A program made the position numbers and the translations under genes. Positions 35,629-48,552 of a stretch of 52,402 nt of DNA are shown piece by piece; position 1 is the first letter of the stretch; every line of letters begins with the position of its first letter. A model generated the notes under the pieces. That model made no database searches and had not been told where the DNA came from. It worked only from the letters and a program-made list of their open reading frames with translations. The DNA comes from Candidatus Kapaibacterium sp. (GTDB lineage: Bacteria; Bacteroidota; Ignavibacteria; Kapaibacteriales; UBA2268): NCBI GenBank assembly GCA_937936035.1, contig CALGXJ010000040.1, forward strand, positions 1 to 52,402, in the 5' to 3' direction.

Positions 35629-36666
35629 TTATTCCACAATATATTCTTCGCCGTGAATGTCGCGACGCACTTGAATATTGCCATCGCCAAGAGCATTGCG
35701 TAAATCTTCTTCTGCCGGAGGCAGCACTTTATTATCATCCATATATTTCTTAAGTTCATCGTAAGTGATTTGCTTGTATTTGCCATCATCAGGGAAATAG
35801 AGAGTGGAAATTTGCTTAAAAATATCCACTTTAATGAGTTTTCCAACACCTTCTTCGGTTTCGATACGAGATTGAAGTTGTGGGTAGTGCTTAAATGCTT
35901 CGCTGTAAGTATCAATTTCGTAAACAAGGCAACATTTTAATCTGCCGCAGTATCCGCTAAGCTTCGCAACATTGTTGGAAAGCTGCTGCAAGCGGGCGTG
36001 TTCGAGCGTTACATGATTGAAATCAGCCAGGAAAGAAGTGCAACAAAGGTTCAGCCCGCAGGGACCGAAACCCGACCCCATTCGTTTAGTTTCTTCGCGA
36101 GTGGAAATCTGTCGCAGTTCTATTCGGGTTTTGAAGACACGGGCAAGTTCCTTGACAAGCTCGCGAAAATCAATGCGTTGCGGTGCAGTGAAATAGATAG
36201 TTAAGCGTTGGCGGTCGAGTTGCCATTCGGCTTCGGTAACCTTCATATCAAGTTTGAACTGCTCGACAAGTTCACGGGTCTTTTTCACAACGGAAGGTTC
36301 TTCGGCAGTATTGATAAAGTAGCGTTCGAGGTCTTCGTCGTCTGCTTCGCGAACCACTTTATGCTTTATGGAGCGGGCTTTGTGGCAACATCTGACACGT
36401 GCTTTAGCCGAAGCGCCGATATAGGTAACAATACCTAAATCAACTCCATTTTCGGCTTCCACGACCACTTTGTTGTCGGGCTGAATACTATCGAAGCCTG
36501 TCGAAATATAAAAACCACGCCTATTACCTTTGAAGAGAACTTCTACAATGTCTTCATTAGCAAGAATTTCCTGAATATGCTGGACATGTTCGATGATTTT
36601 GTTGTCGCCGTTTGTTCCGTTATTTGCGTGGTTTTTTCCATTTTGATTTATCTCATTTAATTCCAT
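35629..36666 (-). CDS. PSP1 domain protein (YaaT/RicT-like)
   Basis: Start at ATG 36666 (MELNEINQ...); the track's longer N-terminal extension is a low-complexity AT-rich read-through. PSP1 C-terminal signature LTIYFTAPQRIDFRELVKELARVFKTRIELRQI...GPCGLNLCCTSFL. Confidence 0.8.
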   Translation of the reverse strand: MELNEINQNGKNHANNGTNGDNKIIEHVQHIQEILANEDIVEVLFKGNRRGFYISTGFDSIQPDNKVVVEAENGVDLGIVTYIGASAKARVRCCHKARSIKHKVVREADDEDLERYFINTAEEPSVVKKTRELVEQFKLDMKVTEAEWQLDRQRLTIYFTAPQRIDFRELVKELARVFKTRIELRQISTREETKRMGSGFGPCGLNLCCTSFLADFNHVTLEHARLQQLSNNVAKLSGYCGRLKCCLVYEIDTYSEAFKHYPQLQSRIETEEGVGKLIKVDIFKQISTLYFPDDGKYKQITYDELKKYMDDNKVLPPAEEDLRNALGDGNIQVRRDIHGEEYIVE

Positions 36667-36972
36667 TAACTCTCCAAATAAAAATCTATATCTATATAAG
36701 TTAAAATAATTTAATAATAATTGAAATAAATTAACTTTTAATATACAATTTAGTTTGCAAAAAAGCAAATTTACAAAAAATGAGAGAATATTGAATGGTG
36801 TTTTGAGTTTTATGAGTTTCATAAACGAATTTTCGGGATGAGAACCTATACATTGAGAAATCATTTCAGTTAAATGTCCGGGAAATTATATGAATTTAAA
36901 TAAATAACGAAAATAAAATATTAACCTAAACGCTTTAATTTTTTAAATTTGTTGAAAACACAATGGTGAAAA

Positions 36973-43061: not shown

Positions 43062-43263
43062 ATTCAGGCAAAATAATTATTGGATAAAAATTCAAATTTA
43101 TTTCTTACTCGATAAATTTTTATCGGTAAATTCAAATATAATCAAAAATTATTATAAATATAAACGTCGATCAATAATAATTTCGTAAATATATTGAAAA
43201 TTTATTGAAAAAAAACAATAAATACTTAAATTTGCTAAATTTTCACTTTAATTGGAGAAAGCT

Positions 43264-45138
43264 ATGAAAGTTGAAGAGATTCAGAAGTATATCAAGGACA
43301 TAGAGTTATTCAAAGACCTCAGCGACGAAGAAATATCAATGATAGCAGCAAAAGCGGAGATCCGGAAGATCAAAAAAGGCGAAAAGCTATTCGAGGAGAA
43401 CGCACCACGCACACATTTGTATATGATAGCTGACGGAGAAATTGAGCTTGTCAAGAACACAACTTTTGGAAGCGAGAAAATCCTGACAGTTTTCACTAAG
43501 TATGATTTTTTAGGTGAAGGAGCGTTGATGGACGACTATCCGCACTCGACATCGGCAAGAGCGTCTGTAGATAGCGTAATCATCCAGCTACATCGAGAGA
43601 AGCTAAATGAGCTTATGCAATCGCAGGCTCAAGCAGTAGTGAAAATTCTGTCGCGAGTGGCAAGAGTGATTTCTCGACGGATGCGACAAACCACAAATCA
43701 GGTGGCAGATGCAGCTGCCCAGTATATTTCGGGACGTACCCGTCGCGAACACGACTTGCTAGGCTGGCGGGAAGTGCCGTATGAATTTTATTATGGCATT
43801 CAAACGCTACGTGGTTATGAAAATTTCAATATCACAGGAGTTGCTATATCGCATTATCCATTGCTGATAAAGGCTTTGGCACAAGTGAAGCTAGCAGCAG
43901 CGAAAGCAAATTTTGCACTAGGGCTGCTTCCCCCACGAATGGCAGAAGCGATTTTCGAAGCTTGCGAAGAAATTATACACGGCAAATGGCACACTCATTT
44001 CATCGTTGATGTAATCCAGGGCGGTGCTGGAACTTCAACAAATATGAACGCCAACGAAGTAATTGCAAACCGTGCTCTTGAAATAATGGGCTACGAACGT
44101 GGCGACTACGAGCATTGCCATCCGAATAACCATATTAATCTTTCGCAATCGACAAACGACGCATACCCGACGGCATTGAACATTGCTATTATTTATGAAA
44201 GCCAAAATTTAGTGGAAGCGCTCAAAGAACTTATTGCTTCGTTCCGCAACAAGTCGAAAGAGTTTTCGCAGGTTATCAAAATGGGACGAACTCAGTTGCA
44301 GGATGCTGTTCCTATGACGCTCGGACAAGAGTTTGGAGCATTTGCTGATACTCTGGAAGAAGAAATTCAGCGTCTCGAAGCAAATGCCCGGTTACTGCTC
44401 GAAGTGAATATGGGCGGAACAGCAATTGGAACCGGTATTAATGCAGACCCGAAATTCCGCGAGACAGTAATTCAATATCTTTGGGAAATAACAGGTTTGC
44501 CTGTGAAATCGGCATCAAATTTAGTTGAAGCAACGCAGGATACCGGAGCATTTGTTATTTTCTCGTCGGCGGTAAAACGTCTTGCGATAAAATTATCGAA
44601 AATTTGCAACGATTTGCGTCTGTTGAGCTCGGGACCGCGTGCCGGACTTAACGAAATAAACCTGCCACCGATGCAGCCGGGCTCATCTATTATGCCGGGC
44701 AAGGTGAATCCTGTTATTCCGGAAGTTGTAAATCAAATTGCCTTCAAGGTGATAGGCAACGACCTGACGGTAACTATGGCAGCCGAAGCGGGGCAGTTGC
44801 AATTGAACGTTATGGAGCCGGTAATTGCTCAAAGTATATTTGAATCTATGGAAATGCTTATAAATGGTATAAAAACGCTTAAATTACGTTGTATTGATGG
44901 TATTACTGCTAACGTGGAAAGGTGTCGCGCTTATGTTGAGAACAGTATTGGATTGGTTACGGCACTTAATCCATACATTGGCTACGAGGCAAGTTCTGCA
45001 CTTGCAAAAGAGGCTCTCGAAACAAATCGTGGAATATACGAGCTCGTTTTAGAGAAAAACTTACTTACAAAAGAGCAACTTGACGAAATTCTCTCACCAG
45101 AAAATATGATTGAACCTAAGCCACTGAAAAAAAGATAG
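43264..45138 (+). CDS. aspA: Aspartate ammonia-lyase with an N-terminal cyclic-nucleotide-binding-like domain (fusion)
   Basis: ATG at 43264 preceded by GGAG (43254-43257). aa ~10-135 form a CNB-like fold (LFKDLSDEE...GEKLFEE...YMIADGEIEL...FLGEGALMDDYPHSTSARA). From ~43738 it aligns by eye with E. coli AspA (EHDLLGWREVPYEFYYGIQTLRG.ENF, QGGAGTSTNMNANEV, SQSTNDAYPT, signature GSSIMPGKVNPVIPE). Confidence 0.88.
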   Translation: MKVEEIQKYIKDIELFKDLSDEEISMIAAKAEIRKIKKGEKLFEENAPRTHLYMIADGEIELVKNTTFGSEKILTVFTKYDFLGEGALMDDYPHSTSARASVDSVIIQLHREKLNELMQSQAQAVVKILSRVARVISRRMRQTTNQVADAAAQYISGRTRREHDLLGWREVPYEFYYGIQTLRGYENFNITGVAISHYPLLIKALAQVKLAAAKANFALGLLPPRMAEAIFEACEEIIHGKWHTHFIVDVIQGGAGTSTNMNANEVIANRALEIMGYERGDYEHCHPNNHINLSQSTNDAYPTALNIAIIYESQNLVEALKELIASFRNKSKEFSQVIKMGRTQLQDAVPMTLGQEFGAFADTLEEEIQRLEANARLLLEVNMGGTAIGTGINADPKFRETVIQYLWEITGLPVKSASNLVEATQDTGAFVIFSSAVKRLAIKLSKICNDLRLLSSGPRAGLNEINLPPMQPGSSIMPGKVNPVIPEVVNQIAFKVIGNDLTVTMAAEAGQLQLNVMEPVIAQSIFESMEMLINGIKTLKLRCIDGITANVERCRAYVENSIGLVTALNPYIGYEASSALAKEALETNRGIYELVLEKNLLTKEQLDEILSPENMIEPKPLKKR

Positions 45139-45165: not shown

Positions 45166-45195
45166 AAGAGGTTGCTTTCTATTGAGCAACCTCTT
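45166..45195. terminator. Bidirectional hairpin terminator between the convergent aspA-fusion and NifX-like genes
   Basis: Perfect 11-bp stem AAGAGGTTGCT/AGCAACCTCTT with an 8-nt loop, followed by TGTTTAATT on the + strand and by T-rich sequence on the - strand. Confidence 0.7.
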
Positions 45196-45760: not shown

Positions 45761-45803
45761 ATTTTCTGCTATTTATCAGATATTTTTGAGGCTAAGCGGC
45801 GAC

Positions 45804-48356
45804 TTAGACAATAATATTAATAAGCTTATTCGGGACGAAAATAATTTTACGAATTGGCTTGCCCTCAACGTATTTCTGCACCTGTTCGTTTTCAAGAGCA
45901 ATTTGCCTGACTTCGTCCTCCGATGCGTCGAGTTTGATTTGCAGGCGGGTGCGAATTTTGCTACACACCTGAACTACAAACTCGATTGTCTGACGCACGG
46001 TTTTGGCTTCGTCGAACTGGGGCCACCCAGCAAATACAACGCTTTCGGTTTCGCCGAGACGATGCCATAATTCTTCGGCAATGTGCGGAGCAAACGGAGC
46101 AAGGCAGAGAAGGAATTTTTTCATTGCATCTTTTGGTTTGGTTTCGTATTTGTAGAATTCATTGACAAAAATCATCATCTGAGCGATAGCGGTATTGAAG
46201 CTCAGGTTTTCAATATCATCCTGAACTTTTTTGATAGTGTAGTTCAGAACGTATTCCTGTTCGTCGTTGAGCGGAGCATCGACAACATTAGGTGAGAGGT
46301 TGCCGTCGTCGTCGAGAATCATTCTCCAGACACGGTTAAGGAAGCGGTTTACTCCTTCGATACCTTTGGAAGACCAGGGTTTTGATGCTTCGAGCGGACC
46401 GAGGAACATTTCGAACAAGCGGAGGGAGTCGGCGCCGTATTCATTAATTACTTCATCGGGATTAATGACGTTTCCGAGTGATTTGGACATTTTGCGACCA
46501 TCTTCGCCAAGAATCAATCCCTGGTGGAAGAGCTTTTTGAATGGTTCCGGAGTGGACACATAGCCGTAGTCGTAAAGGACTTTGTGCCAGAACCGGGCAT
46601 AGAGCAAGTGCAGCACAGCGTGTTCGGCACCACCGACGTAAAGATCAACTCCATCGGGCATCATCCAGTATTGTTCTTTTTCTTTCGAGCAGAAGAATTC
46701 GTTGTTGTTTGGGTCGATATAGCGCAGGTAATACCAGCAGGAACCAGCCCACTGAGGCATTGTATTTGTTTCGTAGCGGGCACGTTTGCCTGTTTTCTTG
46801 TCCACGAAATCAACCCATTCGGTGACGTTGGCAAGTGGTGATTCGCCGGTGCCGGCAGGCTTAAAATCTTTCACCTCGGGCAGCAGCAATGGTAATTCGT
46901 CGGGGTCTAAGGCTCGCTTCGTTCCATCTTCGAAGAACATAATCGGGATAGGTTCGCCCCAGTAACGCTGCCGGGAGAAGAGCCAATCACGCAATTTATA
47001 TTGCACTTTGCGTTGCCCGATGCCTTTATTTTCGATCCAATTGATAATTCGTTCGATTGCTTGGCGAGTTGGAACGCCATTGAGCGAAACTTCCTGATTT
47101 TCCGAGTTCACTCCAATTCCATCGTAAGAAACGAAGGCTTCATTTTCTACTTCGATTTGGGAGCCATCAGCTGGGGCAACTACTTGTACAATAGGCAAGC
47201 CGAACTGACGGGCGAATTCATTGTCGCGTGTATCGTGTCCGGGCACAGCCATAATTGCGCCGGTTCCGTAGTGAGCGAGCACATAATCAGCAATCCATAT
47301 AGGAATAAGTTTGTTATTGGCAGGATTAATAGCGTAGCCGCCGGTTGGAACGCCGGTTTTTTCTTTGGAAAGTTCAGTGCGTTCGAGGTCGCTTTTCTCT
47401 GCAGCCTGTTTGATGTATTGCTCGACGGAGTTGCGGTATTCGTCGGTTGTAAGCTCAGGAACAAGCTCGTGTTCGGGAGCAAGCACCAGATAGGTAGCGC
47501 CGAAAATAGTATCGGGACGAGTAGTGAACACAGTAATATGTTTGTCGGAAGAATCTATTTTGAAGTTAATCAAAGCACCTTCGCTTTTGCCAATCCAGTT
47601 TTTCTGCATTTCTTTTGTTGAGTGGGGCCAATCGACAAGCTCCAAGTCTGCAAGCAAGCGTTCGGCGTATTCGGTGATTCGAATCATCCATTGGCGCATA
47701 GGGCGGCGTTCCACAGTGTAGCCTTTTTCTTTCCACTCGTCCACTTCTTCGTTGGCAAGCACGGTGCCAAGCTCGGCGCACCAATTAACAGGGATCATTG
47801 CAATATAAGCAAGGCGGTGACGGTCGCGGTATTCTTCGATTTCGCGAGGGTCGGTGATGCTCTTGGGTATTGGCAATTCCGAGATTGGACGAGCTTTATT
47901 TAGTTCTTTGTCGAAATAAGAGTTGTAGATAAGCAGGAACATCCATTGCGTCCATTTGTAATAATTCGGGTCGGTAGTATTGATACATCTGGACCAATCG
48001 TAGCCGAGCCCAATCATATTAAGTTGTCGTTTGAAATTTTCGATATTTTTTTCTGTTGCAACAACGGGGTGGATGCCGGTTGTCATCGAATAGCGTTCCG
48101 TAGGCAAACCGAAGGCATCGAACCCCATAGGGTGCAGCACCGAAAATCCCTTCATACGCTTGTAGCGGGCGACGATGTCCGTGGCAGTGTAGCCTTCGGG
48201 GTGTCCGATGTGGAGCCCGGCACCGCTCGGATAGGGGAACATATCGAGAATATAGTATTTGGGATTATTTTTGTTTTCGACAACTTTATTTACATTATTT
48301 TCCTGCCAGAATTTTTGCCATTTTTGTTCAATTTCTTTAAAAGGATAACCAGCCAT
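45804..48356 (-). CDS. leuS: Leucine--tRNA ligase
   Basis: 850 aa. HIGH motif (GLHIGHPEGY), KMSKS motif (RKMSKSLGN), and the typical LeuS N-terminus FKEIEQKWQKFW. Confidence 0.95.
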   Translation of the reverse strand: MAGYPFKEIEQKWQKFWQENNVNKVVENKNNPKYYILDMFPYPSGAGLHIGHPEGYTATDIVARYKRMKGFSVLHPMGFDAFGLPTERYSMTTGIHPVVATEKNIENFKRQLNMIGLGYDWSRCINTTDPNYYKWTQWMFLLIYNSYFDKELNKARPISELPIPKSITDPREIEEYRDRHRLAYIAMIPVNWCAELGTVLANEEVDEWKEKGYTVERRPMRQWMIRITEYAERLLADLELVDWPHSTKEMQKNWIGKSEGALINFKIDSSDKHITVFTTRPDTIFGATYLVLAPEHELVPELTTDEYRNSVEQYIKQAAEKSDLERTELSKEKTGVPTGGYAINPANNKLIPIWIADYVLAHYGTGAIMAVPGHDTRDNEFARQFGLPIVQVVAPADGSQIEVENEAFVSYDGIGVNSENQEVSLNGVPTRQAIERIINWIENKGIGQRKVQYKLRDWLFSRQRYWGEPIPIMFFEDGTKRALDPDELPLLLPEVKDFKPAGTGESPLANVTEWVDFVDKKTGKRARYETNTMPQWAGSCWYYLRYIDPNNNEFFCSKEKEQYWMMPDGVDLYVGGAEHAVLHLLYARFWHKVLYDYGYVSTPEPFKKLFHQGLILGEDGRKMSKSLGNVINPDEVINEYGADSLRLFEMFLGPLEASKPWSSKGIEGVNRFLNRVWRMILDDDGNLSPNVVDAPLNDEQEYVLNYTIKKVQDDIENLSFNTAIAQMMIFVNEFYKYETKPKDAMKKFLLCLAPFAPHIAEELWHRLGETESVVFAGWPQFDEAKTVRQTIEFVVQVCSKIRTRLQIKLDASEDEVRQIALENEQVQKYVEGKPIRKIIFVPNKLINIIV

Positions 48357-48552
48357 ATTAATATTTATATTATTTATTTAACAAATACAAAAAACAAAAA
48401 TAACGATTTTTTTCAAATCTAAATGAAATATAATAGATTTAGTTAATAAATAATATTGTTTGTTGTGAAGGACAATATAGGGACGGAAGCATATCAATAT
48501 AAAACAAACGGGGAGATTAACCGTCTTTAAAAAGTTATATTTGAGAAGAGAA

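Follow-up and report, generated by a model that had tools for sequence, protein, structure and literature searches.

An N-terminal CRP-type sensor domain fused to aspartate ammonia-lyase in Candidatus Kapaibacterium and other bacteria: a candidate ligand-gated aspartase

Enzymes gated by a cyclic-nucleotide-binding (CNB) domain are already known, and here we describe a variant in which such a domain is fused to aspartate ammonia-lyase (aspartase, AspA), a combination that is unstudied as far as we found. The gene lies in a 52,402-nucleotide stretch of DNA from Candidatus Kapaibacterium sp. (contig CALGXJ010000040.1 of assembly GCA_937936035.1), which was analysed whole and is called the window. 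In MtPat (Rv0998), the enzyme carries at its N-terminus a CNB domain that binds cAMP and controls the enzyme by direct allostery (PMC8556138). MtPat and MsPat (MSMEG_5458) are the nearest functional analogues of the fusion, since in both a CNB domain gates an enzyme without transcription, but the effector of MtPat is a GNAT and not a lyase. MtPat has the canonical Arg in its phosphate-binding cassette, is monomeric and uses its sensor as an autoinhibitory lid.

Two studied CNB domains that lack this Arg do not bind cAMP, those of trypanosome PKA-R (PMC10959531) and of the family 2B encapsulin (PMC11550324). The trypanosomatid PKA-R domains bind inosine, guanosine or adenosine instead of cyclic nucleotides, and a Glu at the cassette Ala (A202 of PKA RI-alpha) excludes phosphate (PMC10959531). 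They resemble the fusion in having a polar residue in place of the cassette Arg, and their structures 6h4g and 6hyi are among its fold matches; they differ from it in the Ala-to-Glu change, which is absent in the fusion (A87 is Ala or Ser). In the CBD insertion of the family 2B encapsulin from S. griseus (EshA/Sg Enc), the Arg is replaced by Trp, and this domain was shown experimentally not to bind cAMP (PMC11550324). The encapsulin CBD and the fusion sensor are both CNB folds with the Arg replaced, but the CBD is inserted into a shell protein, has a poorly conserved pocket and lacks a long C-helix, unlike the fusion sensor.

The two halves of the fusion have separate counterparts. CRP-family effector domains (C. 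glutamicum GlxR, M. tuberculosis CRP Rv3676 and E. coli CAP) have the same fold, and the alignment with them covers beta-roll, cassette, C-helix and hinge. After the hinge, CRP/FNR regulators continue into a winged-helix DNA-binding domain, whereas the fusion has AspA there, a His in its cassette and Arg49 in place of a Gly. Its predicted long C-helix and hinge are CRP/FNR-like, and dimerisation through them is putative. Residues 160-624 share their motifs and C-terminal domain with AspA/AspB (PDB 6wng, E. coli 1jsw and Bacillus YM55-1 1j3u). Characterised aspartases start at an R-x-E-x-D-L-L-G hairpin, whereas the fusion has ~159 additional N-terminal residues as a sensor. A full-text literature search on aspartase with a cyclic-nucleotide-binding domain, or on aspartase in Ignavibacteria, found no paper, in agreement with the original prediction, made from the window's letters, whose author knew of no characterised example.

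Architecture and distribution of the fusion

The fusion gene is an open reading frame that runs from the ATG at 43264 to the stop at 45136-45138, and the window sequence holds no stops or frameshifts inside it. The gene and its parts, in window coordinates, are:

43264..45138, + strand: whole CNB-AspA fusion gene, 624 amino acids (aa), stop included (single open frame; three Pfam domains in one polypeptide)
43264..43719, + strand: sensor with a CRP-type cyclic-nucleotide-binding fold, residues 1-152, comprising N-helices, 8-stranded beta-roll and B and C helices (PF00027; AlphaFold 2 (AF2) model; Foldseek)
43408..43410, + strand: Arg49, where canonical domains have the Gly of the GD/GE motif in the beta2-beta3 loop (position relative to PKG from profile alignment)
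43507..43563, + strand: variant phosphate-binding cassette FLGEGALMDDYPHSTSARA, residues 82-100 (family alignments; lowest-entropy segment within the sensor)
43627..43719, + strand: long C-helix, residues 122-152, with SRRMRQTT at 137-144 (43672-43695) (helix 122-155 in the domain model; GlxR alignment)
43720..43743, + strand: junction or hinge QYISGRTR (QYxSGRTR in the family), residues 153-160 (entropy 0.24 bits, the most conserved stretch of the protein)
43741..45135, + strand: complete aspartate ammonia-lyase, residues 160-624 (TIGR00839 above cutoff; end-to-end alignment with PDB 6wng and 1jsw)

Pfam placed Lyase_1 at residues 170-498 (E 7e-99) and FumaraseC_C at residues 564-616 of the 624-aa protein. 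The NCBIfam aspA equivalog TIGR00839 scored 733.4 bits against a cutoff of 681.2, which bears out the original assignment of the C-terminal ~465 aa to AspA, and the fumC (class II fumarase) model stayed below its cutoff (484.9 vs 664.75 bits). Residues 160-624 aligned end to end with solved aspartases (6wng, E 3e-192; E. coli AspA 1jsw, E 2e-168). The SS-loop GSSIMPGKVNP, which carries the catalytic Ser and had been quoted as the signature of the class-II fumarase/aspartase family, was found at residues 473-483 (44680-44712), and its G473, S474, K480 and N482 do not vary among the 76 members of a family alignment. We also observed the substrate motifs TSxNMN, SQSTND and GRTQLQD, identical to those of E. 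coli AspA in the 1jsw alignment; within them T257-S258-T259-N260, S296-T297-N298-D299 and T343-Q344 are invariant in the same 76 members. By sequence, the lyase half is a full AspA.

The N-terminal region matched the Pfam family cNMP_binding (PF00027) at residues 34-120 with 67.2 bits (gathering threshold 27.5; E 1.3e-18; profile positions 2-88 of 89), and in a genome-wide search the PF00027 match to the fusion protein reached 71.6 bits. The AF2 model of residues 1-167, with a predicted local distance difference test (pLDDT) score of 82.5, is made up of N-terminal helices, a beta-roll of eight strands, a short helix in the cassette and a long C-helix (122-155). Profile search and model thus confirmed the CNB-type domain that had been predicted, and all four CNB motifs quoted for it are present in the sequence. 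The best Foldseek matches of the sensor model were GlxR, M. tuberculosis CRP and T. thermophilus CAP (TM 0.70-0.77, probability 1.00), with TM 0.71-0.77 for the first two; PKA, PKG and channel domains ranked after the CRP-family effector domains, and the DNR sensor domain was also matched. Among NCBIfam models, the best CNB-type match for residues 5-159 was the family 2B encapsulin (E 1.7e-14). The predicted lack of a helix-turn-helix (HTH) domain likewise stood, with no Pfam match to one on the 624-aa protein, whose residues 160-624 are AspA. The window's sensor (43264-43743) is 35-43% identical to those of the six other genomes of the same family (G007, G031, G058, G110, G134 and G150) and 45-58% identical to sensors of other families in the class; this closer likeness to other families may reflect horizontal transfer or a heterogeneous family.

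The two halves meet at a point that can be placed on CRP proteins. The C-helix is amphipathic and as long as that of CRP, and R138 and R139 of its SRRMRQTT motif are invariant in the family alignments. In a pairwise alignment with GlxR, which covers the whole domain and beyond, SRRMRQTT stands opposite ARRLRRTN and the hinge QYISGRTR opposite TDVPGRVA, and the alignment continues into the first AspA residues. The stretch SRRMRQTTNQVADAAAQYISGRTR, which spans C-helix and hinge, lies on its GlxR counterpart, which we take to be the C-helix segment that touches the cAMP adenine, followed by the hinge into the DNA-binding domain of CRP proteins. The first AspA strand, R-x-E-H-D-L-L-G (compare RIEEDLLG in E. 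coli), starts at the hinge. Since the junction aligns with the GlxR/CRP hinge, AspA occupies the place that the HTH domain has in a CRP regulator. On these alignments the sensor domain is CRP-derived, and the fusion protein can best be seen as a regulator of the CRP type in which aspartase has taken the place of the DNA-binding domain at the hinge. All members examined have the same junction, which recurs even in the most divergent clade (as RYATGATR-x-E-x-D-M-I-G) and in members with Tyr in the cassette, and from this shared junction we infer one ancestral fusion.

The fusion is real and widespread. A search with residues 1-160 returned 1593 protein clusters; all 120 that were listed carry PF00027 together with PF00206, and the full-length members among the matches listed (~610-630 aa) also carry PF10415. 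In a pattern scan with one genome per species, relatives were encoded in 533 genomes, several of which are complete chromosomes. These include Ignavibacteria, Kapaibacteria, Melioribacteraceae, Zixibacteria, Aminicenantes/Acidobacteriota, Calditrichota and GN15, and span several phyla. Of 151 genomes sampled from the window's own class, 27 have this N-terminus on an open frame of ~615-720 aa. At least 24 contigs from independent JGI, ENA and NCBI assemblies encode the 97% identical protein P0001 in intact form, and these contigs share the window's block of DJ-1, CdsA, fusion and NifX-like genes. An assembly or frameshift artefact was rejected on the strength of the open frame, of these independent assemblies and of the complete chromosomes.

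Three further searches concern the reach of the family. In a representative library we found no full-length fusions, only fragments and multi-CNB PKG-like proteins, and no other partner for the His-type domain; full-length fusions were probably missed there because they cluster with AspA. An identity look-up of the window's own protein in the records gave no match. A 1019-aa 'extended' open reading frame in high-GC Aminicenantes loci was rejected as an alternative-frame artefact.

A fixed variant of the phosphate-binding cassette

Profile alignments pair His94 (codon CAC, 43543-43545) with the Arg that PKG and GlxR domains have in the cassette. P93 and H94 are invariant both in 117 close homologues and in 79 species genomes from several phyla, and D81, F82, E85, G86 and S95-T96-S97 are invariant or nearly so in the same two sets; E85 and G86, like R138 and R139, do not vary at all. 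In the cassette Gly-Glu pair, which makes the ribose 2'-OH contact, G84 is Ser in some members and E85 is invariant. Position 87 is Ala in 90 of the 117 homologues, Ser in 25 and Glu in none. The replacement at position 94 is Tyr in a small Kapaibacterium-like clade (21 clusters, including two genomes of the window's family), and Arg occurs there only in two fragments, P0182 and P0137.

A second change lies in the beta2-beta3 loop. Arg49 is near-invariant, being kept in 116/117 homologues, 78/79 species genomes and 15/15 divergent members. The fragment P0182, which has the cassette Arg, has no Arg at position 49 and an Asp after it, as in canonical domains; P0137, which also has the cassette Arg, keeps Arg49. 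Since one of the two fragments lost Arg49 and the other kept it, covariation of positions 94 and 49 is suggestive at most. Overall, the contacts of a canonical cAMP site that are retained are the ribose contact Glu85, Ser95 (Ser83 in CAP) and the CRP base-contact positions T143 and T/S/N144, and those that are changed are the phosphate Arg, now His94, and the Gly of the 'GD' loop, now Arg49.

We compared conservation along the protein by column entropy, which was 0.42 bits for the cassette, 0.58 for the C-helix core and 0.24 for the hinge, against 1.55 for the whole sensor and 0.76 for AspA; the remaining beta-roll surface lies at 1.7-2.2 bits. With 0.42 bits in a sensor at 1.55 overall, the cassette reads as a fixed variant and not as a degenerate one. 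The original prediction was therefore right that the phosphate-contacting Arg has become His, but its description of the cassette as degenerate did not hold, since the segment is near-invariant. Constraint falls mainly on the ligand pocket and on those parts that carry the signal in other CNB proteins, as would be expected of a working allosteric switch.

Candidate ligands, mechanism and alternatives

We lean, by a modest degree, towards a ligand-gated aspartase, in which a CRP/FNR-type sensor half is joined to a complete AspA exactly at the CRP hinge. By analogy with other CNB proteins, a small-molecule signal probably switches the enzyme directly. The small molecule would bind in the beta-roll pocket and reposition the cassette and the C-helix; a ligand-driven shift of these two elements is, to our knowledge, the behaviour of every studied CNB domain. 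At either end of the AspA tetramer, two sensors would probably pair through their C-helices, and the invariant eight-residue hinge would relay the movement to the N-terminal hairpin and the N-terminal domain of AspA. In AspA, the N-terminal domain supplies the TSxNMN and SQSTND loops to active sites that are common to several subunits. The relayed change would then raise or lower catalytic activity.

A nucleotide-like ligand that is held in a non-canonical way is expected because E85, Ser95, T143 and T/S144 are kept while the phosphate Arg is always His or Tyr. We hold it slightly the better supposition that the ligand is of this kind, nucleotide-like and held unlike canonical cAMP or cGMP, or else another metabolite. 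Since the trypanosome-type Glu is absent (A87), a phosphate-bearing ligand is possible. The wider proposal is that the signal read by the His-type cassette is neither cAMP nor cGMP and directly gates a central carbon and nitrogen lyase in hundreds of species (Ignavibacteria, Zixibacteria, Aminicenantes and Calditrichota); this is more tentative, and we put it somewhat short of probable. Candidates for such a signal are nucleosides and non-cyclic nucleotides, 2',3'-cyclic nucleotides or other unusual ones, and carbon or nitrogen metabolites.

Several points weigh against a ligand-gated aspartase with a signal of this kind. We infer ligand binding, and its effect on activity, from how the protein is built and from what CNB domains generally do, and the path of transmission from sensor to AspA is conjecture. 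In the AF2 monomer, the hinge has a pLDDT below 50 (residues 139-158) and no confident position; so low a score despite top conservation fits a segment that would be ordered only in the oligomer. Among 77 loci we found no conserved gene neighbourhood that hints at a pathway or a ligand, any one neighbour being shared by at most 6. A protonated His94 might, together with the invariant Arg49, hold a cyclic phosphate after all, and the co-occurrence of cyclases neither supports nor excludes cAMP.

The last two points bear on the alternative that the fusion is an ordinary cAMP or cGMP receptor, in which His94 and Arg49 take over the phosphate contact and aspartate breakdown tracks the cyclic-nucleotide level. 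In E. coli, aspA transcription is under CRP-cAMP control, and such a receptor would be the post-translational counterpart of that control. The canonical contacts other than the Arg are kept (G84, E85, S95, T143 and T/S144), and the near-invariant Arg49 sits in a loop that packs on the cassette. P0182, with its canonical-like Asp and no Arg49, counts in favour of this reading, but P0137 retains Arg49 and makes the covariation inconsistent. Class III cyclases were matched in 21 of 26 fusion-bearing near-complete genomes (81%); this frequency is no higher than background (112 of 151 genomes overall, 74%), and cyclase co-occurrence is uninformative because most fusion-bearing genomes have these enzymes at close to the background rate. 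Five of the 26 (96-100% complete) gave no match to class III cyclases, and in four of these five CYTH was unmatched as well, so that at least four near-complete genomes carry the fusion with neither match. Loss of this Arg generally abolishes cAMP binding by CAP, and other Arg-less CNB domains are unresponsive (PMC11550324; PMC10959531). We regard a cAMP or cGMP receptor as credible but unlikely. In the window's own genome (G000, 1.69 Mb, 78% complete) there was no class III cyclase match and the fusion gene was the sole PF00027 match. In one genome of the same family (G058, contig C3, 324460-336358; locus L011), a Tyr-type fusion gene lies beside, and divergent from, four class III cyclase genes; this adjacency has been counted in favour of a cyclic-nucleotide receptor, and as a single case it may be due to chance.

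A sensor domain without a ligand would do structural work only: pairing of the C-helices would stabilise or cluster the tetramer, or the domain would form a constitutive lid. The key Arg is missing, the hinge is conserved beyond the pocket (0.24 vs 0.42 bits), as expected if protein-protein contacts are selected, and the conservation of the C-helix counts in the same direction (core 0.58 bits, cassette 0.42). We nevertheless think a ligand-free module improbable, because the cassette hardly varies between phyla, even at E85 and S95, which structure alone does not obviously require, while the other beta-roll surface is freely variable; ligand-less relic CNB domains usually drift in the pocket. 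Much less probable again is a haem, gas or redox sensor like CooA or DNR, whose cofactor would have His94, or Tyr in the small clade, as its axial ligand. Both residues are well known as ligands of iron, the CooA ligand His77 sits in the region that matches the cassette, and the DNR sensor domain is among the Foldseek matches. Set against this are a full-length nucleotide-type cassette that keeps its Gly-Glu, unlike CooA or FNR, the lack of a conserved Cys, and best matches in sequence and fold to cAMP-binding CRP, GlxR and PKG domains. Public records name the protein simply 'aspartate ammonia-lyase', and the NCBI records of two close homologues (P0283 and P0272; 483-485 aa) start at Met140 (window 43681-43683), an annotation that removes the sensor domain and so hides the fusion in public records. 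Taken at face value, these records, which begin MRQTTN..., and the conservation of Met140 in 112 of 117 members would make plain AspA the true product, with the 139 codons upstream not translated together with it. This is hardly credible: those codons form an open, in-frame, Pfam-significant domain that is conserved as protein across phyla, the ATG at 43264 has a GGAG site of its own, and Met140 belongs to the conserved SRRMR motif of the helix, at a position that is Leu in CRP-family proteins. An extra internal start at Met140, in addition to the ATG at 43264, is possible.

Gene surroundings and significance

The elements around the fusion gene are:

43227..43234, + strand: TAAATTTG, candidate Bacteroidota-type -7 promoter box, TAnnTTTG (sequence; kept in 5/6 aligned relatives)
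43254..43257, + strand: GGAG ribosome-binding site, 6 nt before the ATG at 43264 (sequence; kept in close relatives)
45166..45195, no strand assigned: two-way terminator hairpin common to the fusion gene and the convergent NifX-like gene (12-bp stem, T-run on both strands)

The fusion gene is monocistronic. It is divergent from cdsA across a 202-bp AT-rich spacer and convergent with the NifX-like gene across the hairpin. An in-frame TTG at 43252, upstream of the ATG, is a possible alternative start; in the family alignments, homologues begin at the same Met as the ATG at 43264. Within the spacer, a conserved block at 43195-43234 (TTGAAAATTTATTGAAA...AACAATAAATACTTAAATTTG) ends in the TAnnTTTG box ~30 nt before the start codon and is likely the promoter of the fusion gene. 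We take TAAATTTG to be the promoter box from the known Bacteroidota promoter consensus. The spacer also holds a perfect 16-bp palindrome, CGATAAATTTTTATCG, at 43110-43125, whose CGATA...TATCG arms are kept in five relatives (proteins 72-97% identical); it could serve as the operator through which a dimeric regulator controls one or other of the divergent genes.

Further differences were seen among related loci. In three genomes of the window's family, a gene for a YgjP-like metallopeptidase lies directly 5' of the fusion gene on the same strand (L007, 6865-7629, and L008, 6366-7088, both with a 4-nt gap; L012, 4523-5185, with a gap of ~90 nt); it is absent from the window. When window 45803-48438 (leuS) and 36566-36821 are compared with the locus of a sister species (L097, ~81-85% DNA identity), the leuS segment is inverted and the PSP1 gene lies on the opposite side of the locus, while the block of DJ-1, CdsA, fusion and NifX genes is retained. 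Flanking inverted repeats were looked for at the leuS rearrangement and none were found.

Aspartase connects amino-acid breakdown with the supply of fumarate and ammonia. Model bacteria regulate this enzyme chiefly at the transcriptional level; the fusion carries a sensor within the enzyme, and the lineages that have it make up a large, mostly uncultured portion of the bacterial tree. If the signal is indeed something other than cAMP or cGMP, it would represent a new ligand class for bacterial CNB domains, and the fusion would be, as far as could be found, the first CNB-controlled enzyme of central metabolism. The identity of the ligand would add the specificity of the His-type cassette to one of the best-studied allosteric modules and would yield a compact, ligand-switchable lyase from a group of enzymes, the aspartases, that are industrial biocatalysts. 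It would also reveal the signal that governs aspartate use in organisms of sediments and anaerobic digesters.

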